Shown piece by piece: positions 34,937 through 50,446 of a stretch of 64,000 nt of DNA. Position 1 is the first letter of the stretch. Each line of letters begins with the position of its first letter. The stretch comes from an uncultured delta proteobacterium (GTDB lineage: Bacteria > Desulfobacterota > Desulfomonilia > UBA1062), in assembly GCA_963798485.1 (NCBI GenBank), contig CAWCTR010000021.1:192001-256000 (forward strand). The letters are read 5' to 3'. A program made the translations under genes and the position numbers. The notes below the pieces were generated by a model. That model searched no databases and was not told the origin of the DNA. It saw only the letters and a program-made list of their open reading frames with translations.

Positions 34937-36670
34937 CTACTCACCTTCCATATATCTCTCAATGATATTTACTCCTAGACCTGTGCGTGAGCTTAATTTA
35001 ATTTTAAATCTTTTATCAAAAAGAAATTTCTTTACCCTGTCTATTTCATCCTTCTTATAATTAAAAGAATCTTCATTTCTTACAGAAATATCCACCCAGA
35101 TAAATCCATCTGAATAACCAATATCATCTAGCCTTGCGGCTGTTTCTTCGTAATTTCTACCAACCCTACCCCATTCTTGAATTGTGTCGCAAAATATAAG
35201 TATAAAAGATAAGGGATCTTCCTTGAAAGTTAAGGATTCTAAAATTTTCTTATGGGAAAAAGCACTATCAGCCCTTCCAGAAAAATGCCCCCAGATTCCT
35301 TCATCATGTAAAGCAATAGCCCTTGAAGCTTTTAGAAGGGCCTCCTTGTTCAATCCCTTGGGACGTTGTTTATCGAATAATTTTAATAACGATAACGCAC
35401 CTAAAAGACCATGATTTTTTTCATCGATGATTTTTTCATAAAAGAATAACAATGCAATTCTATCAATGGGGAGGTTATCAAATGTATCGCATAATTCCTT
35501 TGTTTTAAACATGTAATCTTCTTTTACATAGCATTCATCAAGGTTTAATCTTGAAGGATTTTTATCAAGAAACAAGGTATTTTTAAAAAATGTAGCTATC
35601 CATTCATTATAGTTTTGAATATTATAATTATAATCATGATAGGTCGAAGCCAAAAGCCACATATTTTCTAGTGAATTACCAAACTTTTTCTGGAAAGAAG
35701 ATATCGATTTATCAGTATATAATTTGTCTATTATGTAGCATCCTAAAAGAAATACATGAAGTTGATGCAAAAAATGATCCCTATATCTTGGATTGAGCAG
35801 TAGTACAGGTTCAAAATCTTTTTGAAATTCTGGATATTCTAAGCCGATTTTATTCCAAAGTTTTTTTATCAATTCTAATGCAATATCATAATCGTCTTCA
35901 ATTCTGGTTCTATATTCAGCAGCCAATTGTTGTAAATTATCAGTGTATTCTAGATGTTGGATTTCAGCAATCCGATCTATAAGCGTTAAACTAATATTTC
36001 TTCCTTCGGTCCTGCCAACAATTTCTCTTCTTTTATATTCTGGTTCAGGATAGTAAATAAGATATTTATTTGTTTCTTCAATATGAAGATCTAATTTTTC
36101 GAACAGCCTATGCTGTATATCTGGTATTAATTCCTTTGGAAGAGCCTTTTTATGTTCTTTGAGGTATTCTTGAAGTGGTAATATTACCTTGCTGAACTCT
36201 TCAAAGGAAATATCAATGAGTGGAATTGACGATATGATTTCTTCTACGGTCTTTTCTCCAACCTTAAAAAGACCGACTTTATAAGATTGACACAACTCTT
36301 TAAATCTATCGAATTCATTATCTTCACTTAAATAATCAGGATATGCCCAATACACTTTTGCTTTGGGAAAGTAGTATTGAAAGAATGTTGCTGAAGATGC
36401 ATCATTAAGCTCAATACCTCCTTTCACCAATGTACGTGGTATATGCAAATGATAGAAGAAGTCATTACTTTTTATTGTACGGCTATTGATAACATCAACT
36501 ACTACTTCATTAATAGATTCACTTTTCTTTGTAACTCCCCTCTTTCTTGCGTATACAGGCACTCGTGCAGGAAGGAACTTATCTGAGTATACCTCTGTCT
36601 CATATCCCTCTTTTTTGAAGTAGGCGGACAACCAGTTTGTCATTTGTTTCACTGTATATGTGCTTTTCAT
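34937..36670 (-). CDS. HD-superfamily phosphohydrolase domain protein with unassigned N-terminal domain
   Basis: RDHFLH, YHD, NHG, LHD and CDTIQEWGR motifs in the C-terminal half. Confidence 0.75.
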   Translation of the reverse strand: MKSTYTVKQMTNWLSAYFKKEGYETEVYSDKFLPARVPVYARKRGVTKKSESINEVVVDVINSRTIKSNDFFYHLHIPRTLVKGGIELNDASSATFFQYYFPKAKVYWAYPDYLSEDNEFDRFKELCQSYKVGLFKVGEKTVEEIISSIPLIDISFEEFSKVILPLQEYLKEHKKALPKELIPDIQHRLFEKLDLHIEETNKYLIYYPEPEYKRREIVGRTEGRNISLTLIDRIAEIQHLEYTDNLQQLAAEYRTRIEDDYDIALELIKKLWNKIGLEYPEFQKDFEPVLLLNPRYRDHFLHQLHVFLLGCYIIDKLYTDKSISSFQKKFGNSLENMWLLASTYHDYNYNIQNYNEWIATFFKNTLFLDKNPSRLNLDECYVKEDYMFKTKELCDTFDNLPIDRIALLFFYEKIIDEKNHGLLGALSLLKLFDKQRPKGLNKEALLKASRAIALHDEGIWGHFSGRADSAFSHKKILESLTFKEDPLSFILIFCDTIQEWGRVGRNYEETAARLDDIGYSDGFIWVDISVRNEDSFNYKKDEIDRVKKFLFDKRFKIKLSSRTGLGVNIIERYMEGE

Positions 36671-36680
36671 AAGATATTCC

Positions 36681-37174
36681 TCATCTATTTACCGTAAGCA
36701 ACTTCTCAATTTCTTCATATCCCTTATCTATATTATTAACTATAATTGTTTTATCTTTGAGTTCTTTCTTAATAATCCCAAGTTCTGTCAGACCCATTGT
36801 TCACGATATAAGATATTTTTCATAACTATCTTAAAGATTATTGGTATGTTTGATAATGCATAAGGCTTAATAACACCTTTTGGATCAGACAAATCAACTA
36901 CCCCTCTAGAATACCAGGCCCATGCTCTCCTCAACCATAAGATAATATGTATAGAGGGTGGCAGAAGATAAATGATCTTGTCATACTGTTCAGGATTTCT
37001 ATCAAGGCCATGCACATCTTCAACCAATATAGCCTTTGAAGAAGACTGAGGAATGTCTTCATGGGCATAGTAGTCCATATCGATTTGTAAAACCTTTCCA
37101 GGGAGTTTATCAGCTATTTTTCCACGTAAAGTGCTTTTCCCTATGTTTCCAATACCAGTGATTAGAATTTTCAT
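36681..37174 (-). pseudogene. P-loop nucleotide-kinase-like protein, apparent single-base frameshift near 36791
   Basis: MKILITGIGNIGKST Walker A; shifted frame continues LTELGIIKK...LLTVNR* to 36681, at the RBS of the next gene. Confidence 0.65.
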
Positions 37175-37191
37175 GATACCACAATGTTTAG

Positions 37192-38307
37192 TTATACCCT
37201 TTCATATACTCTAAGCGTTTCCTCTAGATATCGATCATATCCATAGCCAATCTTGATGTTGCATCTTGATGGGCCACTCCATTTATCGATTAATTCGGTG
37301 ATTTCCTTCTGTGTTATTTTCATATCATCAAGATCCACTCTTACAATCTGATTCTCTGGAATACCCTGTGTAAACTGCTCATATTCATTTACATCCAAAG
37401 TCAGGTCCGTGATTATCGTAAGGCCCGACCAGAGCGCTTCACACACGATGTTGGAAAAATCTTTGATAGGATTATCTCTTTCAAAATAAAGAAGGTAATC
37501 AATGTTTCCTAATAGAGCGGGCATATGGGCAGGATGAACAAAATTATTATGCTTATAATATCTTAAACCATTTCCCTCGACGAACTTGGCAAACTCAGAA
37601 AAACCACTTCCCTGTCCAACTATTTTCAATGCATGTCGATTTTTGATTTCCGAGAAGATCTCAATGATTTTGTCGAGACTTTTATATTTCCAATGGTAAT
37701 TTATTTTGCCAATGTAGGCAAAAGCAGGCACCTCATGTACATTGATTGCTGGTTTAAAGAACTTTTCATCGGGGATATATCTTGGGAGTGTAACTATATT
37801 TGAGTTGATAGCTTCAAAAATATTTCTGTTCTTGTCATCAGTAATAATTACTGCCGCATTTCGGATTACCTCCTTTAGGAGATTACTGAAAACACCCTGC
37901 TTCAGAAATTTAACTATATCACTACCCCCGTGCCTCAATACATAGGGAAGACCGGTTATATTGGATAGCAGATAGCCGACAATACCATATGGTATGAGGT
38001 AATTCGTATCTATTAAATCAATTTGGTTGTCGCAAATTATTTCCAGTGCCTTGTCCAAGAGTTTAGGCACGTAAAGAGCTGAGTAGGGAATGTGCCAGGG
38101 TGTATCTGGATCGATATAGTGAACTATCAGATTTGGAGGCAGTTCAGGGATTTGATCATTGATATAATATTCCTGTTCGACGCAATTTGCATTAGTGACT
38201 ACATGAACCGTAGCACCTTTTTCAGCAAACCCCTTTGCCATCCAGAAAGTCTGGGCTGATATTCCTCCCTGAGTAGGCGGGAACTTGCTGATCATACATA
38301 CGTTCAT
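37192..38307 (-). CDS. GT4-like glycosyltransferase
   Basis: SKFPPTQGGIS, YLIPYG, HGGSD and EALWSG motifs; GT-B pattern. Confidence 0.85.
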   Translation of the reverse strand: MNVCMISKFPPTQGGISAQTFWMAKGFAEKGATVHVVTNANCVEQEYYINDQIPELPPNLIVHYIDPDTPWHIPYSALYVPKLLDKALEIICDNQIDLIDTNYLIPYGIVGYLLSNITGLPYVLRHGGSDIVKFLKQGVFSNLLKEVIRNAAVIITDDKNRNIFEAINSNIVTLPRYIPDEKFFKPAINVHEVPAFAYIGKINYHWKYKSLDKIIEIFSEIKNRHALKIVGQGSGFSEFAKFVEGNGLRYYKHNNFVHPAHMPALLGNIDYLLYFERDNPIKDFSNIVCEALWSGLTIITDLTLDVNEYEQFTQGIPENQIVRVDLDDMKITQKEITELIDKWSGPSRCNIKIGYGYDRYLEETLRVYERV

Positions 38308-40036
38308 TTATTCGTCCTTTACAAAAATCGTCTATTGAAAAACCGGGTTCAAACCGACCCCTATTATGGACCATGAAATAATAAAAGAGATCAAACATAA
38401 GGACATCCGTGGCACTTTTACAATATTTTGCAAAAGGATGTTTTTTAATGGAATCAGCAGGAATAAGGCTATCAATTATCTTCGTAACTTGAGGGCCAAC
38501 ATACCCCAAGGCAGCAGGCATACCATATTTCTTTCTGCTAATAATATCTTCAAGGTTATACTTCTTTAAGTATGATGATGCTGCGTCTTTGAATATTCTT
38601 TTAGTTCTGTCTTTGTCAGGCACCTTGAACTCGATGGGCAGCGACAAAGCAAACTCTGCAATGTCGTCATAAAGATACGGAGGTCTCGTCTCAAAACCAA
38701 AGGCGGCGCACGATCTGTCAACGCTCCACAGGTGGTAATTCGAAAGCCCGGTTCTCACCAGTGTGTCGAAAAGATTTTTTCTATATGCCCTCTCATCTTC
38801 GGGTTGAGGGAAAAGGTCATGTACAATCTTTTGGACCTTTGAGCTCCCGGGAAGATGCGATGCCCTTTGTCGAATTCTGTCAGAAAAGCCGAGGGGATGT
38901 GTATACGGCCAATAATAACCCCCGAACAGCTCGTCTGCCCCTTCGCCGGTAAAGGCAACCTTATGGTGCTGGGAGATATATTTTGAAAGAATGTGAAAAG
39001 CCAATGCACCCTGAATATCAAAGACTCCACCTGACATGATATTCTCGTAGTGATATATAAAATCAGGCAGTTCATCGATGTAGCCCGAGGTATTGACACA
39101 AATCTCGTTATGTTCAGAGCCAATTGCTGTCGATACTTTCCGCGCATAATCAAGATCAGGGGCATCCTCTGAGTCATAAAGGGTATATGTCTTTACAGGC
39201 TTGTTGAGTATCTCGGTGGACAGAACAGCCATCATCGTTGAATCAAGACCGCCCGATAAATAGATAACCGTTTCATGATTTCCATGCTTGAGTAATCGGG
39301 TAAAAGCATGGAACAAGGTTTCAGTAAGTTGATCAACAGATTCCTGATAATCCATATTGCCATTGCTTACATAATCTGAAGGTTGTGGTGCGTAATATCT
39401 TCTAGATAAGATTTCATGCCCATCAAATTGTACGACGGTTCCCGGTGTGATCTGGCGGATGGATGAAAGCGGTGTGAGGTCCTCTGAAAAGACATACCCA
39501 AAGACTGTCAATTCCTCCAATGCATCTATATCGATCGCCGCAGGTACATCGGGGTGTTGCAGCAAGACTTTCATCTCTGAGCCGAAAATGAGCTTTTCCC
39601 CGGACCGGTGGTAATATAAGGGCTTAATGCCAAATCGATCCCGTGCAAGGAGGATCTTGTTTTTCTCCACGATGACAATCGCATACATACCCTTCAGGTG
39701 TTTTACAAAGTCAGGTCCATATTTTATGTATAGTGGTATAATAACTTCAGCGTCGGTGCCTGAGGTAAACTGAAATTCGTCTTGTAAGAGTTCTCTTTTA
39801 ATCTCCCTATAGTTATAAATCTCTCCGTTGAACAGAAGGGCGATATTGTGTCTCCTGTCTATGAAAGGCAGCACGTCATCTTGAGTGCTGACAATATTCA
39901 AGCCGCATTCACCGAGAGAATGGTTTCCAAATAATGTTGTTATGAACGAGTCTGGCCCGCGATGGCGTATTGATGAAAGCATGGCGGATACCACCACTTC
40001 GTTTCTCTCATTGAATATACCGCAGATGCCGCACAT
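38222..40036 (-). CDS. asparagine synthetase B-like glutamine amidotransferase
   Basis: MCGICG start at 40036 (TGATG overlap with upstream gene); HRGPD, FNGEIYN, RDRFGIKPLY, LSGGLDS and GEGADE motifs. Confidence 0.92.
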   Translation of the reverse strand: MCGICGIFNERNEVVVSAMLSSIRHRGPDSFITTLFGNHSLGECGLNIVSTQDDVLPFIDRRHNIALLFNGEIYNYREIKRELLQDEFQFTSGTDAEVIIPLYIKYGPDFVKHLKGMYAIVIVEKNKILLARDRFGIKPLYYHRSGEKLIFGSEMKVLLQHPDVPAAIDIDALEELTVFGYVFSEDLTPLSSIRQITPGTVVQFDGHEILSRRYYAPQPSDYVSNGNMDYQESVDQLTETLFHAFTRLLKHGNHETVIYLSGGLDSTMMAVLSTEILNKPVKTYTLYDSEDAPDLDYARKVSTAIGSEHNEICVNTSGYIDELPDFIYHYENIMSGGVFDIQGALAFHILSKYISQHHKVAFTGEGADELFGGYYWPYTHPLGFSDRIRQRASHLPGSSKVQKIVHDLFPQPEDERAYRKNLFDTLVRTGLSNYHLWSVDRSCAAFGFETRPPYLYDDIAEFALSLPIEFKVPDKDRTKRIFKDAASSYLKKYNLEDIISRKKYGMPAALGYVGPQVTKIIDSLIPADSIKKHPFAKYCKSATDVLMFDLFYYFMVHNRGRFEPGFSIDDFCKGRINERMYDQQVPAYSGRNISPDFLDGKGVC

Positions 40037-40875
40037 CAGCCTGTCTCTCTCGATAAATATTTCAAAGCCTCGACCAAACCCCAATAGGCATAGGCAGATC
40101 CCTCTTCAATGTAATGATAAGGCCAGAATCCGTTGGGAAGCTGTGTGTCTACCAGCCAGTTAACCGCTTTTTCTATTACCTTTCTTTTCACTAGTTCTGG
40201 ATAAGAAAGAAGCCCCAGCAACACAATCCCTGTTGACCACGGGTCACTTCCGATAGGATGGTCTTTCCAGGGGCCAAAGCCACCATCTTCATTCTGTTCC
40301 TCAGCAAGGAATAAATAAGTATCTTTTATTGATGGACAATCTTCAACGGAAACATTTGATGCTGCCAGTCCCAGTAAAAAGAAACCACCCTTATACGTGA
40401 GTTTCGTAGCACCCTTAAAATCTTTTGCCCATTCCCTTTGCAACCAGTTTACAGCCCTTGGGTCGGAAAGTGATGGAAAAAGATTCAAAAGAAGTCCTGT
40501 TATGGGGATACGGGATATATCACGATTAGTACGCCCCCACCCACCATCTGGATTGCGTTGGGATAAAATCCATTTATTTCCTTTTTCTACCAAAGAGCTA
40601 TAAACATTGCCAATTAATGAGAGGATCTTAACAGAAAGTAAAGACTCTTCCACATCTGACCAGCCACCATCAATGTGTTGATGGTCAGCAGTATATTGAG
40701 CTACCTGTTTGTACAAGATGCTCTTAGAATTAGCCCCTGCACTAATAAGTGATAGGGCACAGATATTTATTCTTCTGACTTCTATCTGATTTTTTAGAGC
40801 TGACCTTATAAAGTCAGTAAGCTGAATGGAAGCTACAATGACACATTGAGTATTATTTTTTTGATTCTTATTCAT
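40036..40875 (-). CDS. prenyltransferase/squalene-cyclase (QW-like) repeat protein
   Basis: Four repeats: QHIDGGW, QRNPDGGWG, QNEDGGFG, QLPNGFW. Confidence 0.85.
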   Translation of the reverse strand: MNKNQKNNTQCVIVASIQLTDFIRSALKNQIEVRRINICALSLISAGANSKSILYKQVAQYTADHQHIDGGWSDVEESLLSVKILSLIGNVYSSLVEKGNKWILSQRNPDGGWGRTNRDISRIPITGLLLNLFPSLSDPRAVNWLQREWAKDFKGATKLTYKGGFFLLGLAASNVSVEDCPSIKDTYLFLAEEQNEDGGFGPWKDHPIGSDPWSTGIVLLGLLSYPELVKRKVIEKAVNWLVDTQLPNGFWPYHYIEEGSAYAYWGLVEALKYLSRETG

Positions 40876-44139: not shown

Positions 44140-44280
44140 TTAACGGCAACCATGGCATCCGGAGCACTGACGGCAGACGATCCGTTTGTCGGATGCATTG
44201 ATAATTTCAACGGGGAAATTCATAGTCTTTTCTTTTCTCAACAGAGGTTTTTCGTACTTTTTTAATTTATCCTTTTTCAT
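44140..44280 (-). CDS. putative RiPP precursor peptide, 46 aa (MKKDKLKKYEKPLLRKEKTMNFPVEIINASDKRIVCRQCSGCHGCR)
   Basis: Manual translation; AGGAG RBS; ATGA overlap with the PqqD stop; YxxPxL motif; C-terminal CxxCxxCxxC. Confidence 0.85.
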   Translation of the reverse strand: MKKDKLKKYEKPLLRKEKTMNFPVEIINASDKRIVCRQCSGCHGCR

Positions 44281-44570
44281 CTTTCTCTCCTTTTAAGAAT
44301 ACCTTCGTTAATATAATTTGTGATGATTTCATTAAAATCACTTTTCCCCTCTGCTTCATTGACGTTAAAACTGCTCAGAAAACCTTTTAAAATGCTCTGA
44401 AGGGGTATGTTCTCCGCAATCTGCTCGAGGATCCAATAGGAGGTTTCATTCAGAGTATAATGTTCCCCTGTGTCAATATTGAAGACCCAGTATTTCCCGA
44501 GCTCCCCAATTTTTTGAAGAAAAATATTGTCCTGCAATACAAACGAATCGATCTCTTTTATTTCCAGCAT
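44277..44570 (-). CDS. PqqD-family / RiPP recognition element protein
   Basis: 97 aa; TGEHYTLNETSYWILE...FNV...D...EGIL pattern; overlaps the radical SAM gene. Confidence 0.88.
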   Translation of the reverse strand: MLEIKEIDSFVLQDNIFLQKIGELGKYWVFNIDTGEHYTLNETSYWILEQIAENIPLQSILKGFLSSFNVNEAEGKSDFNEIITNYINEGILKRRER

Positions 44571-45779: not shown

Positions 45780-47225
45780 TCATGGTTCGAACTTTGGATC
45801 AGGGCATTCAGGGTATGTCGGAGGAAGAGGCCTGCATGCCGGCAGCTCCTCGATAACTCGCATGGACTTCCACTTCCCCTGAAGGAAACGTCCAAAGAAG
45901 GCAAATCCCAGAATAGTCACATAGGCAGTGGCACTATACCAAGCCGCCATTAACCCAAACCCGAGAACCGTGATGGCTATATAGGTTGGAATGACGAGAA
46001 TGAAGGCAGAGACCAGAACGTTCATGTACATGACGAAGCGTGTGTCCCCTGCTCCCTTTATGGCATATGCAAAGATAACATTCATGGTATCAAAGACAGA
46101 GTAAAATGCCACAAACCTGAGCAGCATTATACTGAGGCGTTCAATCTCGGTATATGCCCCTGCATGAGCATGCGCAGCAAAGGGTGCTACAAGAACACCA
46201 GGCACCACCACGAAAAGGATCGCGATGGTACTCATATAGATAAACGTCATACCGAATCCCGAATATACGCTTCTGGCGGCAATGGCAGGCCGGTTTTTGC
46301 CAAGATACTGCCCCACGAGAACAGATACCGCAATGCCGACCCCAATCATGGGCATGAAGGCAAGCGTGTTGATGTTGAATGCTATGTTTGTTGCAGCAAG
46401 GCTTACTGTGCCAAGACGCCCAAGGATCAGTACAAATACTGTGAACCCTACCATATCGAGGAAGAACTGCACCCCTGACGGAACTCCGAATTTAAGCAGT
46501 CGCACGAACAGCTCCCTCTCTGGTTTCCAACCTGAGATAGTATGATAGACTGCATCGTAGGAAGGATGAGCAATAAGTGCCACATAGGCCAAGAAGGAAA
46601 AGCTCCCAGAGATAACCGCAGCAATGGCTGCACCTTTCATCCCCATCTCAGCGAACCCCCACTTTCCGAAGATGAGCATGTAACCCAGAACGAGATTGAC
46701 AGCGGTGGCGAGCACATTTACCCACATGACAGGCCAGGGCTTCCCCCTGCCAGAGAAGAATCCGGCCAAGGCGGAGGCGGCTATCACCGGGAAGCCGCCA
46801 AGGCAGAGGTACTGGAAATAAACCACTTCATTTTTCTGCACTGCAGGGTCATGACCTACAAAGGCAAAAAAAGGCCCGGCAAACGGGATCAGGCATAAGA
46901 TAATCAGACCCCCGATAAGTGACAAGTAGATGCCCTGCCACAGGGCCGGGCCGATCCTGTCATATCTTCGGGCGCCATAGTATTGTGCCACAAAGGTGTT
47001 CACATAACTCGCAGTCCCGATGAAAAAGCTCATGACTGCGAAGTTCACCATACTTGAGGGCATGGCTGCGGCTATGGTCTCAGGTGAATACCAGGAAAGA
47101 AACATCCGGTCCACGAAGTGCTGGATAGACCAAGAGCCGGTGCTGAGCACCAGCGGGAAGGCGAGCACGAGCACTTCCCGGACTCCACCTTGGCCTGACC
47201 ATCTTTCTTTTAAGTAATTATTCAT
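45780..47225 (-). CDS. MATE-family efflux transporter
   Basis: VAQYYGA, GMKGAAIA, VGQYLG and KGAGDT motifs; multi-TM. Confidence 0.93.
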   Translation of the reverse strand: MNNYLKERWSGQGGVREVLVLAFPLVLSTGSWSIQHFVDRMFLSWYSPETIAAAMPSSMVNFAVMSFFIGTASYVNTFVAQYYGARRYDRIGPALWQGIYLSLIGGLIILCLIPFAGPFFAFVGHDPAVQKNEVVYFQYLCLGGFPVIAASALAGFFSGRGKPWPVMWVNVLATAVNLVLGYMLIFGKWGFAEMGMKGAAIAAVISGSFSFLAYVALIAHPSYDAVYHTISGWKPERELFVRLLKFGVPSGVQFFLDMVGFTVFVLILGRLGTVSLAATNIAFNINTLAFMPMIGVGIAVSVLVGQYLGKNRPAIAARSVYSGFGMTFIYMSTIAILFVVVPGVLVAPFAAHAHAGAYTEIERLSIMLLRFVAFYSVFDTMNVIFAYAIKGAGDTRFVMYMNVLVSAFILVIPTYIAITVLGFGLMAAWYSATAYVTILGFAFFGRFLQGKWKSMRVIEELPACRPLPPTYPECPDPKFEP

Positions 47226-47417
47226 GTGAATACCATGTCCGGGATATGTAAGCTCATCGGTGATGAATTCATAGCACGACCGAAATACTTTGGAAATTGC
47301 CAGGACATGATTCGGACTTGATTCATTCCCTATCATCAATTAAGAATGAACCTCACAAGCTTGTTTCTCCATCAAAAGTGCATCCATGTGAATAGGGCTA
47401 TACAAAGGAGTATGATA

Positions 47418-47651
47418 ATGGCTGTGAGTTTTGATCAAGTTGAAAAGGCACTCGAAAAGACCCGCACCGTACTCAAGAGTGACGGCGGAAATGTTGAACT
47501 CGTAGATGTCTCACCAGATGGAATTGTACAGGTTCGGCTTAAGGGTGCATGTAACGGATGTCCTATGGCCACCATGACACTCAAGTCTCTCATCGAAAGG
47601 GTAATCAAGAAAGAGGTGCCTGAGGTCAAGGAAGTGAAGGCTGTGGCTTAG
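47418..47651 (+). CDS. NifU-like (Nfu) Fe-S carrier protein
   Basis: DGGNVELV and GACNGCP motifs. Confidence 0.93.
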   Translation: MAVSFDQVEKALEKTRTVLKSDGGNVELVDVSPDGIVQVRLKGACNGCPMATMTLKSLIERVIKKEVPEVKEVKAVA

Positions 47652-48667
47652 TGACCATTAAACCCTTCCCCCGTATTGGATCCATCCACTCGCTGACGGT
47701 TCCCCTACCCGGATTCCCTGCCCTCATCTGCTCCAATATGTTTGTTCTGGGGGATGGCCCCATAACACTCATCGACTGTGCCCCCAAGTTCCCGGGCTCA
47801 TTGCTTACTCTGGAGAGGCAACTCCATGAAATCGGCTTTGGTTGGAATGACGTCGAGCGCATCATCATCACCCATGGCCATATCGACCACTTCGGCCTGG
47901 TGGGCCGGATCCGCAACGCCTCCGGACATGCGATCCCCTGCTATATCCACCATGACGATCTGTGGAAACTATCCGGTGATTATCTTAAGAGCGGTATGTG
48001 GGACGAGGATGCCGACGTCTTCTATGCAAAGATAGGTATGCCTGAACAAACAGTGGAACGGATGAAGCGCCGGTCGCACTTCTTTAAAAATCTCTGCGAT
48101 CCGGTAGATGATGCAATCCCTATGAAGGGGGGCGATATCTTCCAGGGTAGCGGGTTCGATCTTCAAGTCATCCACACCCCCGGTCACTCGATAGGATGCT
48201 GCTGCCTGTATGAGCGGAATCACAAAATCCTTTTCAGCGGCGACCATCTCCTCAAGCACATCACACCCAACCCTTTCCATGAGGTGAACCGTTCCCGCCT
48301 GAGAGACCCTTCATATAAGAGCCTTAAGGCATATATGGAATCTCTTGTGAAACTTGAACATCTCAAAGTAAGCTTCATCTTCCCAGCACATGGAGAATAT
48401 ATTATCGACCTGGAATCCCTTATAGCAGGCTACCGGAAGCATCATGAGAAACGTACCGAGGAAATATGGCAGACCCTGAAAAATGGGGTGTGTTCTATCT
48501 ACGGGCTTATGACAGATGTTTTCCCCGGCATCGAAGAATCCGAGGCCTTCCTTGCTGTCTCTGAGATCCTTGTCCACCTGGAACTCCTGATTGAGGCAGG
48601 CAAGGCCGAACTTGTAGGGGAAGGGCCGCCTGCACTCTTTCACGCAAGCTTAGTCAACACAAATTAG
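47651..48667 (+). CDS. MBL-fold metallo-hydrolase
   Basis: THGHIDH, HTPGHS, SGDH and PAHG motifs. Confidence 0.93.
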   Translation: MTIKPFPRIGSIHSLTVPLPGFPALICSNMFVLGDGPITLIDCAPKFPGSLLTLERQLHEIGFGWNDVERIIITHGHIDHFGLVGRIRNASGHAIPCYIHHDDLWKLSGDYLKSGMWDEDADVFYAKIGMPEQTVERMKRRSHFFKNLCDPVDDAIPMKGGDIFQGSGFDLQVIHTPGHSIGCCCLYERNHKILFSGDHLLKHITPNPFHEVNRSRLRDPSYKSLKAYMESLVKLEHLKVSFIFPAHGEYIIDLESLIAGYRKHHEKRTEEIWQTLKNGVCSIYGLMTDVFPGIEESEAFLAVSEILVHLELLIEAGKAELVGEGPPALFHASLVNTN

Positions 48668-48686
48668 TGATCCCAGGGTTGAGGTT

Positions 48687-49295
48687 ATGCCTACTATACG
48701 AGAAAAAACTCAACACATCATCGAGGACTGGATTGCGCCGCAGAGCCGGGTGCTTGACTTGGGCTGCGGTGACGGCACGCTTTTGAGCCGCCTTACGGAA
48801 AGGAAGCAGGTTGACGGCATCGGTGTCGAGATTTCCCGGGATATGATCGTGAAGTGTCTGGGCAAGGGCATCAGTGTCTATCAGGCGGACATCGACCACG
48901 GCCTGTCTCAATGGGACGAGCTCAGCTTCGATTACGTTATTCTCACCGCCACCCTGCAGGTGATCCACAGACCCTATAATGTTATCAATGAGATGCTCCG
49001 GGTGGGGAGATGCGCTGTCATTTCAGTGTCCAACTTTGGTTATGCGGCGAACAGATTGGGTATCATGTTGAAAGGCCGCATGACGGATGATATGAGGCTC
49101 ATCGGGGACTGGCACGACACCCCGGTGATTCGATTCGTCTGCCTTAAAGAGTTCATCAGGTCGCTTACGGGAATGGGTATTGATATTCTGGATGCAAGGT
49201 TTTTTCTCCCCTTTGACCTAACAGTGAGAACCAAGATGCCCCTTGATAACCTGATTGTGAAAGAAGCCATCTTTATGCTGGGGCACAATAGATGA
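48687..49295 (+). CDS. metW: methionine biosynthesis protein MetW
   Basis: VLDLGCGDG, FDYVIL..TLQ, EMLRVG; adjacent to metX. Confidence 0.92.
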   Translation: MPTIREKTQHIIEDWIAPQSRVLDLGCGDGTLLSRLTERKQVDGIGVEISRDMIVKCLGKGISVYQADIDHGLSQWDELSFDYVILTATLQVIHRPYNVINEMLRVGRCAVISVSNFGYAANRLGIMLKGRMTDDMRLIGDWHDTPVIRFVCLKEFIRSLTGMGIDILDARFFLPFDLTVRTKMPLDNLIVKEAIFMLGHNR

Positions 49296-50446
49296 GCACA
49301 AGCCCCATTGTTGAGACCAGCATCCTCTCTATCGAGAGGCCTTTCAGGCTGGAATCCGGTGAAATACTCTCAGAGATGAACATTGCCTATGAGACCTACG
49401 GGGAGCTCAACAAGTCGAAAGACAATGCCATTCTCATTGAACACGCACTTTCAGGCAGCGCCCATGCCGCATTCTGCCATAAGGGCGATACAAAGCCGGG
49501 TTGGTGGGATGTCATGATCGGACCGGGCAAGGCCTTTGACACGGATAAACACTTTATTATCTGTGCAAACGTCATCAGCGGTTGTAATGGAACAACCGGG
49601 CCATCTTCCGTCAATCCGGCCACGGGCGAGCCCTATGCCCTTACCTTCCCGCCGGTGACCATCCGCGACATGGTGGAGGTACAAAGGCTCCTGCTCAGCC
49701 ACCTCGGTATCGAACGTCTTAAAAGCGTTGTGGGAGGTTCCATGGGAGGTATGCAGGCCTTGCAGATCTTCTGTGACTACCCATCGCTGTTTGCTTCATT
49801 CATCTGTATCGCATCCACCATGCGGCACTCGGCCCAGCAGATTGCCTTTAACGAGGTAGGCAGGCGGGCCATCATGGCAGACCCGAGATGGAACGGTGGC
49901 AATTATTACGGGGAAATACCCCCGGAGGGCGGGCTGTCGGTTGCACGGATGATCGGCCATATCACCTATATCTCGGAAAAAATGATGCAAGAAAAATTCG
50001 GCCGGATTCGCAAGGGCAAAGACTCCAAGGCCGTATTCAGACCATCCTTCGAGGTAGAACACTACCTGGACTACCAAGGCATAGCCTTTGTCCGCCGGTT
50101 CGACGCCAACAGCTATCTTTATATCACAACAGCCATTGATAACTTCGATCTGGTCTCCTCCATCAGCGGCTCTACACGATTACGGGGCGAAAACCGGGCC
50201 AGGGGTAGAGGCTTTGACACATTAAAAAAGAAAAAAGGCCTCGTCATCTCCTTCACCTCAGACTGGCTCTACCCCTCTCAACAATCCCACGACATTGTCC
50301 GGTTCTTTTCGGGGTTGAATGTACGTGTCTCGTATGCAGAGATCGCGACTGACCACGGCCATGATGCCTTTCTTACGGATTATGGGCAACTCTGTCTGAT
50401 AGTGAGCAGCTTTCTAGACTCGCCCAATGAATTAAGCAGATTATAA
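49292..50446 (+). CDS. metX: homoserine O-acetyltransferase
   Basis: HALSG, GWWD, GGSMGG, RFDANSY and HGHDAFL motifs. Confidence 0.95.
   Translation: MSTSPIVETSILSIERPFRLESGEILSEMNIAYETYGELNKSKDNAILIEHALSGSAHAAFCHKGDTKPGWWDVMIGPGKAFDTDKHFIICANVISGCNGTTGPSSVNPATGEPYALTFPPVTIRDMVEVQRLLLSHLGIERLKSVVGGSMGGMQALQIFCDYPSLFASFICIASTMRHSAQQIAFNEVGRRAIMADPRWNGGNYYGEIPPEGGLSVARMIGHITYISEKMMQEKFGRIRKGKDSKAVFRPSFEVEHYLDYQGIAFVRRFDANSYLYITTAIDNFDLVSSISGSTRLRGENRARGRGFDTLKKKKGLVISFTSDWLYPSQQSHDIVRFFSGLNVRVSYAEIATDHGHDAFLTDYGQLCLIVSSFLDSPNELSRL

Follow-up and report, generated by a model that had tools for sequence, protein, structure and literature searches.

The PqqD-family proteins are peptide-binding chaperones or recognition elements. 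Small stand-alone members of this family occur in lasso peptide systems (the B1 proteins, such as TfuB1 and TbiB1) beside a precursor with an N-terminal Y-x-x-P-x-L, and a passage of PMC12710340 describes YxxP as the characterised recognition motif of lasso peptides. In the sactipeptide and ranthipeptide systems (SkfB, AlbA, PapB and CteB/SCIFF), an enzyme with radical S-adenosylmethionine (rSAM) and SPASM domains is combined with a Cys-rich peptide, and the PQQ (PqqA/B/D/E) and mycofactocin (MftA/B/C/F) systems combine an rSAM/SPASM enzyme with a PqqD-like chaperone and a tiny precursor whose reactive C-terminus is near-invariant. Here we describe a gene for a peptide of 46 residues that shares features with each of these systems. 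It is located in a stretch of 64,000 nucleotides from an uncultured delta proteobacterium (assembly GCA_963798485.1, contig CAWCTR010000021.1, positions 192,001 to 256,000), which is referred to below as the window, and it directly follows the genes for a PqqD-family protein and an rSAM/SPASM enzyme (Table 1). Our reading of the sequence is that the peptide is, on balance, probably the precursor or scaffold of an undescribed rSAM pathway of the RiPP type (ribosomally synthesised and post-translationally modified peptide), encoded on a horizontally spread cassette of eight to nine genes.

The N-terminus of the peptide is rich in Lys and is followed by the segments YEKPLL (residues 9-14) and MNFPVEII (residues 20-27). 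The C-terminal tail is CRQCSGCHGCR, where the four Cys are found at positions 36, 39, 42 and 45 of the 46 residues. The stop codon of the PqqD open reading frame (ORF), TGA at 44277-44279, overlaps the start codon of the peptide gene so that the sequence ATGA is common to both. The ORF, its AGGAG ribosome-binding site, the ATGA coupling to PqqD, YEKPLL and the CxxCxxCxxC terminus had all been given in a preliminary description of this DNA and were read back from the sequence without change. The same description regarded the ORF as hidden; it is indeed absent from the first ORF track, but its homologues are called by public gene callers and one of them carries the NCBI name 'hypothetical protein'. 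No terminator or attenuator was found between the peptide gene and the downstream gene for a metallo-beta-lactamase (MBL) fold protein (fold z-score 0.46), and no further copy of the peptide was found in the source genome, where the sole other match had an E value of 0.8.

The peptide belongs to a large family. A word-indexed search returned 30 other proteins of 42-59 aa with 61-88% identity, and an unbiased, unindexed profile search covering 1.84 billion representatives returned 232 clusters, formed at 50% identity, with E<=1e-3, of which 83 reached E<=1e-10. The motif CxxCxxCxxC plus 0-2 residues forms the C-terminal end in 142 of the 150 clusters listed, and nearly all of them align to the protein end. 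Across 150 family members Q38 and C39 were observed to be invariant and Y9, P12, M20, F22, C36, S40, C42, H43, C45 and R46 to be at least 90% conserved, which gives the signature Y-x-K-P-x-h ... M-x-F-P ... C-x-Q-C-S-x-C-H-x-C-(R/K) at the C-terminus. The second residue of the tail was found to be variable in the unbiased profile search (C-x-Q-C-S-x-C-H-x-C). In the ESM Atlas the only clusters found were unnamed 'hypothetical protein' entries, one of which is labelled viral from a single member with known phylum.

The codon sequences show the same constraint. Fourteen pairwise comparisons against homologous loci gave proportions of 0.67-1.05 for synonymous differences, which is saturated, and of 0.09-0.34 for non-synonymous differences; the differences at codon positions 1, 2 and 3 amounted to 965, 604 and 2334. 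Given this contrast and the homologue clusters, the ORF is a real coding gene under strong purifying selection. A length of only 46 aa and the lack of any Pfam, NCBIfam or PHROG model covering the peptide would suit an ORF that arose by chance in the PqqD-MBL spacer. This explanation is refuted by the 232 homologue clusters and the selection at codon level, and the ribosome-binding site, the overlapping start and a position kept across phyla also speak against it, so that we give it practically no weight.

The leader and the PqqD protein point towards the lasso B1 group. The best NCBIfam match of the PqqD protein is lasso_PqqD_Bac (22.2 bits, under the cutoff of 80), and against solved structures its profile matches TfuB1 (6jx3_B, E 5.5e-6) as well as 9x90_B, a 'lasso peptide biosynthesis PqqD family chaperone' (E 1.9e-5). 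The claim that YEKPLL is a YxxPxL leader motif is supported by the conservation of Y9 and P12, by these solved relatives and by what PMC12710340 says of YxxP. One might therefore regard the peptide as a lasso precursor, with the PqqD protein as B1 and the asparagine synthetase homologue of the cassette (AsnB) as the lactam cyclase. The spacing of YxxPxL, the NCBIfam and PDB relatives of the PqqD protein and the presence of AsnB would agree with such an assignment. However, the PqqD score is far under the lasso cutoff, and AsnB keeps the MCG nucleophile and passes TIGR01536 (Table 1) but fails the lasso cyclase model NF033535 (127.5 against 525 bits). Neither a lasso-type cyclase nor a B2 protease of the transglutaminase type was found among the cassette ORFs scanned with Pfam, and the peptide has no Asp or Glu 7-9 residues past a plausible cleavage site. 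Furthermore, the partner enzyme here is an rSAM/SPASM protein, which a lasso pathway would leave unaccounted for. A lasso precursor is thus very improbable.

The rSAM gene overlaps the PqqD gene by 13 nt. Its product contains the CX3CX2C motif (C23, C27 and C30) and seven C-terminal Cys residues at positions 253, 271, 309, 312, 318, 321 and 339. The best solved relative is SkfB (6efn, E 5.8e-14), an enzyme that forms thioethers, and the top NCBIfam model is TIGR04340, the radical SAM/SPASM enzyme of the ACGX system, which aligns end to end (residues 12-341 on model positions 2-339 of 341) but, at 190.6 bits, stays well short of its cutoff of 400. The peptide in the window also differs from that system in having no ACGX repeats, the repeat being taken here from the family name. 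Other models scored lower (AhbD 162, SbtM 160), and the enzyme falls under every curated NCBIfam cutoff, so the chemistry is not fixed by family.

Comparison with the sactipeptide and ranthipeptide maturases gave PapB 71.2 against 340, AlbA 64.6 against 850 and StsB 66.1 against 625. The rSAM enzyme in the window also differs from them in having no fused N-terminal RiPP recognition element (RRE), the tailoring genes differ, and the terminal CxxCxxCxxC matches no curated precursor family (0 NCBIfam matches). In the case of PQQ and mycofactocin, the MBL-fold protein of the cassette recalls PqqB and its glycosyltransferase MftF. In contrast to those systems, the rSAM enzyme scores 74.8 against 381.35 for PqqE (TIGR02109) and 106.9 against 265 for MftC (TIGR03962), the residues expected to react are four Cys with Q, S and H instead of Glu/Tyr or Val-Tyr, and nothing in those systems corresponds to AsnB, the toroid or the P-loop-like and HD-like partners. 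The general features of an RRE-dependent rSAM/SPASM pathway, namely the Cys set of the rSAM and SPASM domains, a PqqD element and an adjacent precursor in the same direction, were all found.

The arrangement of these genes was then compared across other genomes and metagenomes. Fetching with the patterns CRQCS[GS]CH and KE[KP][TA]MNF(P) gave 25 loci in species genomes, 80 loci out of at least 368 relatives in metagenomes and 41 loci in viral contigs, and these were compared by tblastn with the proteins of the window and by a hidden Markov model (HMM) built from 14 PqqD homologues. The resulting context classes depend on flank length, and the assignments of IMG/VR and of the metagenome-assembled genomes (MAGs) were taken as given. 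An upstream PqqD was scored when the end of its ORF fell in the interval from -60 to +200 nt relative to the point where the tblastn match of the peptide begins, and at least 400 bp of flank was needed for a copy to be informative. On this basis the peptide gene is immediately preceded by an ORF matching the PqqD profile in 15 of the 24 informative copies from genomes and in 38 of the 64 from metagenomes (53/88 together). The same profile matches 61 of the 63 loci classed as cassette, and two loci missed by tblastn (L024 and L025) were seen on inspection to carry divergent PqqD-like ORFs.

The gene order in the cassette is rSAM/SPASM, PqqD and peptide, followed by the MBL giant, the alpha/alpha-toroid protein, AsnB and the GT4-type glycosyltransferase (GT4). 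Thirty-three cassette loci have a downstream flank of 6 kb or more; all 33 contain the toroid and AsnB, 32 contain MBL and 31 contain GT4. Cassette loci in general come from groups as distant as Desulfobacterales, KSB1, Chloroflexota, Calditrichaeota, Syntrophorhabdus and Methanoperedens. The preliminary description had made its proposal depend on the peptide being conserved beside homologous genes, and the peptide was found directly downstream of homologous PqqD and rSAM/SPASM genes. In a subtype of the cassette a gene for a 577-aa protein directly follows the peptide (L020, L095, L112, L116 and L117). In one locus two peptide genes flank the 577-aa gene within a single cassette (L099:4223-6531), and a second, divergent peptide copy with the tail CKQCSSCHNCR or CHQCSSCHNCR was noticed in L013:1738-2024 and L077:517-845. 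In addition, a different rSAM gene abuts the peptide in three metagenome loci (L096:307-1323, L115:468-1412 and L106:1681-2413; two distinct sequences). This second, unrelated type has a CX4CX2C-like motif and weak matches to B12-binding rSAM methyltransferases.

The tight coupling of the rSAM, PqqD and peptide genes, the role of PqqD proteins, the lasso B1 relatives and the conserved Y-x-x-P are the grounds on which we favour a substrate role for the peptide. In such a pathway the PqqD protein would bind the N-terminal Y-x-x-P-x-(L/I/F), as lasso B1 proteins bind their leaders, and would present the invariant C-x-Q-C-S-x-C-H-x-C tail to the rSAM enzyme. The enzyme is predicted to hold two auxiliary clusters, which are typical of peptide cross-linking SPASM enzymes. 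If the peptide is a substrate, the chances are about even that its Cys-rich tail either acquires thioether bridges between Cys sulfur and carbon or is oxidatively changed in some other way; the simplest guess is that the four Cys form such bridges. The invariant Q38, S40 and H43 could be acceptor positions or catalytically relevant. Judging from family membership, the tailoring enzymes would act later: AsnB may amidate a carboxylate, GT4 may attach a sugar and the MBL protein may act as a hydrolase. If so, this tailoring set (MBL giant, toroid, AsnB, GT4, P-loop-like and HD-like proteins) is without precedent in the family libraries searched.

By analogy, the product may be a small molecule with redox or metal activity that has been conserved, and not a bacteriocin. 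The likeness to cofactor systems over antibiotic RiPPs comes from the near-invariant tail across bacteria, archaea and viruses, the PqqB-like fold and the glycosyltransferase. A Cys-Gln-Ser-His core that is near-invariant from Desulfobacterales to Methanoperedens would, if the substrate role is true, point to a cofactor or other conserved small molecule and away from a rapidly evolving antibiotic. Among the sequencing runs listed for the locus no RNA run was found; these were DNA runs only, with small word shares.

Several observations weigh against such a substrate role. Conservation spans the full length of the peptide and not the tail alone, and the invariance of the tail within the fetched loci is partly by construction since these were retrieved by motif patterns. 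In Pfam scans of the cassette ORFs neither a dedicated peptidase family nor a recognisable motif for cleavage of a leader was found. An upstream PqqD is missing from 35 of the 88 informative non-viral copies and from all 40 informative viral ones, and no cassette gene occurs within 10 kb at any of the 41 viral loci. The PqqD profile matched 0 of the 41 viral loci and 0 of the 42 loci of the non-cassette class. These orphan copies nevertheless keep Y-x-K-P and M-x-F, and conservation of the leader where there is no RRE is unexpected for a mere leader. In five orphan-bearing genomes, which are MAGs of 0.5-1.9 Mb with completeness not known, the PqqD profile and the toroid were found in 0 of 5 each, so that absence of PqqD from these genomes is not established; the rSAM query gave weak, distant generic matches on other contigs in three of them. 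The preliminary description had named the peptide as the substrate of the rSAM enzyme. Its conserved adjoining PqqD and rSAM/SPASM genes agree with this, but about 40% of the cellular and metagenomic copies and all 41 viral copies have neither nearby, and a simple account as an rSAM substrate leaves the orphan copies unexplained.

These orphans would be expected if the peptide were a self-sufficient mini-protein, whose CxxCxxCHxC tail binds a metal, an Fe-S cluster or heme or serves as a dithiol redox relay. Within the cassette such a protein would be an accessory subunit, chaperone or regulator that is not consumed, and the copies in phages and symbionts would have the same function without partners. 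The five genomes with no PqqD-profile match, the conservation over the whole 38-residue body and the (near-)invariant Q38, S40 and H43 besides the Cys are consistent with this explanation. In viral contigs the gene is often tightly packed among late structural genes (L138, L144 and L085), which also fits. However, the strict adjacency and coupling to PqqD in 53 of the 88 informative copies fits a substrate better, and the peptide profile gave no significant solved relative (the best was bS21, E 0.69). A single Zn or 4Fe-4S site would also be of unusual geometry if formed by four Cys within 10 residues, which counts against a mini-protein. The CSGCH of the tail is a CXXCH sequence, the motif of the c-type cytochromes; a Kyte-Doolittle scan found no hydrophobic signal segment in the peptide and thus no export signal, which makes canonical periplasmic attachment of heme c unlikely. 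Overall, we consider a mini-protein possible but rather unlikely, and prefer the substrate role.

The viral copies were observed at loci of 25-67% GC. They retain Y-x-K-P, M-x-F and the tail, and in one subgroup M-T-F-M-F-(D/E) replaces M-N-F-P-I-E. PHROGs identifies the gene that immediately precedes the peptide gene in L125 and L121 as that of the terminase large subunit (TerL), and in L144 as a TerL gene the one that overlaps the peptide stop codon. By the same models, the peptide gene is followed by a portal gene after 1 nt in L138 and after 35 nt in L133, and L130 has a gene for a head-tail adaptor. Among the 50 nearest large ORFs flanking the viral copies, eight match phrog_2 (TerL) and five match phrog_2662 (portal), and further portal, head-morphogenesis and methyltransferase families occur among the flanking ORFs. 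A local seeded search located TerL no more than 3 kb away at 13 of the 41 viral loci, and 11 further loci from a portal-seeded set bring the number with TerL or portal in this range to 24 of 41. These 11 are less certain because the portal set, which was built by iterative phmmer, drifted and took in a methyltransferase domain; both Pfam and PHROGs identify L060 and L151 as methyltransferases. Some of the metagenome loci in the non-cassette class are also phage: the portal gene ends at the peptide start in L085, head-completion and connector genes are found in L078, TerL in L105 and L108, and a DNA methylase gene downstream in L041, L049 and L097. In one viral contig a single ORF of 3187 aa ends 56 nt before the peptide gene (L124:397-9960). 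A tblastn search of INPHARED and PLSDB (cultured phages and plasmids) with the peptide in the window and with the viral variant gave no match, which may reflect uncultured hosts or the low-complexity filter.

Orphan copies also occur among ordinary cellular genes in MAGs of Woesearchaeota, 'archaeon', Paceibacterota, Stahlbacteria and Uhrbacteria. Their neighbours encode a TrmB-like regulator, an aminoacyl-tRNA synthetase, two low-molecular-weight phosphatases, ribosomal protein L21 and an ABC exporter. As an example, the orphan peptide of a Paceibacterota contig (L023:7401-8722) lies between two low-molecular-weight phosphatase / ArsC-like genes (Pfam LMWPc). On an archaeal contig (L029:7983-8048) only the last ~20 codons of the peptide are present and there is no start codon; this is probably a decayed copy, since it adjoins the same TrmB-like regulator as the full copies in L010 and L013. 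On two contigs of 67% GC (L028:2360-3571 and L030:623-1837) a conserved ORF of ~403 aa with no Pfam match overlaps the 3' end of a peptide variant and could be a partner of that variant.

The parasite copies keep Y-x-K-P and the Cys tail and encode no RRE or maturase, and it is for this reason conceivable that orphan precursors of phages and episymbionts act in trans on the RRE/rSAM machinery of a host, as decoys or as hijacked precursors. Decoys may jam a peptide-derived defence or signal of the host, and hijackers may make the host synthesise the product for the parasite. We regard action in trans as unlikely. If true, it would be a case of a RiPP precursor encoded by a virus or symbiont without its own pathway, and no such host-parasite interaction was found in the full-text searches made. 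The orphan peptide between terminase and portal genes in numerous uncultured phages, together with the copies in the candidate phyla radiation (CPR) and DPANN, offers a way to test whether parasites tap or block peptide modification by their hosts.

A full-text literature search on the tail motif, the gene set, phage-borne RiPP precursors and ACGX/TIGR04340 gave nothing on the peptide family (supplements and subscription journals lie outside its scope). An earlier mention of this PqqD group could be present in RRE/rSAM networks, for example in the data sets of PMC12710340 and PMC7470986. RRE-dependent modification of peptides by rSAM enzymes is itself known; the peptide and its maturase are named by no curated model, and the distribution in viruses and symbionts is unexpected. 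If the substrate role holds, the locus represents an uncurated and widely transferred rSAM peptide pathway, and ORFs of 40-50 aa beside PqqD genes merit annotation.

Table 1. Features of the peptide locus and its neighbours, in positions of the window
Feature	Coordinates	Strand	Evidence and remarks
MATE efflux transporter, directly upstream	45780..47339	-	TIGR00797 222 bits
Radical SAM/SPASM enzyme, 341 aa	44558..45583	-	Pfam Radical_SAM 76.3 bits, SPASM 32.5 bits
PqqD-family protein, 97 aa, discrete RiPP recognition element	44277..44570	-	Pfam PqqD 26.1 bits (gathering cutoff, GA, 23.4)
Shine-Dalgarno sequence AGGAG	44287..44291	-	6-nt spacer to peptide ATG (44278-44280); within last PqqD codons
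Peptide gene	44140..44280	-	46-aa ATG ORF, translation MKKDKLKKYEKPLLRKEKTMNFPVEIINASDKRIVCRQCSGCHGCR
MBL-fold giant, ~1060 aa	40868..44071	-	Pfam Lactamase_B_2 47.5 bits; HAHSDH from residue 699
Alpha/alpha-toroid protein, 279 aa	40036..40875	-	SQHop_cyclase_C 46.9 bits, Prenyltrans 28.5 bits
AsnB-type glutamine-dependent amidotransferase	38222..40036	-	TIGR01536 323.1 bits (cutoff 267.1)
GT4-type glycosyltransferase, 371 aa	37192..38307	-	Pfam Glyco_trans_4_2 34.7 bits
128-aa protein, N-terminal GxGNIGKST	36788..37174	-	no Pfam or NCBIfam match
Soluble 577-aa protein	34937..36670	-	no Pfam, NCBIfam or PDB match

The MBL giant has CxxC pairs at its C-terminus and a variable N-terminal region of ~570 aa without family assignment. 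Its start is uncertain, as the ORF begins with TTG and alignments begin at residues 8-18, and no sequence match was found for it in the PDB. The toroid resembles the repeats of prenyltransferases and class-II terpene cyclases and matches squalene-cyclase C-terminal domains in the PDB (E ~5e-6). The ORF listed for AsnB is 38222-40084; the likely start is Met17, which gives an MCGICG N-terminus. The end of AsnB and the GT4 ORF overlap by ~85 nt, and this recurs in homologous loci such as L008 and L009; either the GT4 start would lie further downstream or the overlap would be conserved. The GxGNIGKST of the 128-aa protein may be read from its motif as a P-loop (Walker-A-like). The gene for this protein was seen in 10 of the 33 loci with at least 6 kb downstream, many flanks of which stop short of it, and a homologue adjoins an orphan peptide in L031. 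The invariant residues of the 577-aa protein are H299, H302, H345-D346, H420, H455-D456 and D495, and these His and His-Asp positions may be HD-like. A simple hydropathy scan predicted no membrane segments in the cassette proteins.

The region from ~34.5 to 45.6 kb has a GC content of 30-44%, against ~50% around it. No relative of the rSAM enzyme at E<=1e-40 was found in 14 genomes of the same genus, and clear matches to the peptide profile were found in 3 of 401 sampled genomes of the phylum, the source genome included. The cassette block is, on these grounds, a horizontally acquired island. No relatives of TerL or portal proteins that would indicate carriage by a prophage were found in the window or in any of the 63 cassette loci. 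A role in anti-phage defence was considered and rejected, as PADLOC gave only a generic rSAM similarity to pVip (74 bits) and 0 matches for the other nine proteins. The MATE transporter has a GC content above that of the island and recurs upstream in only two other loci (L008, 44% identity; L055, weak, 22%). It may be the exporter, and its membership of the cassette is doubtful in view of this limited recurrence. Just past the island, the plus strand encodes at 47651-50446 a second MBL-fold protein, which is stand-alone and 338 aa long, together with an alpha/beta hydrolase and a methyltransferase-like protein of the MetW type, an arrangement that looks like a pair of the MetX/MetW type.

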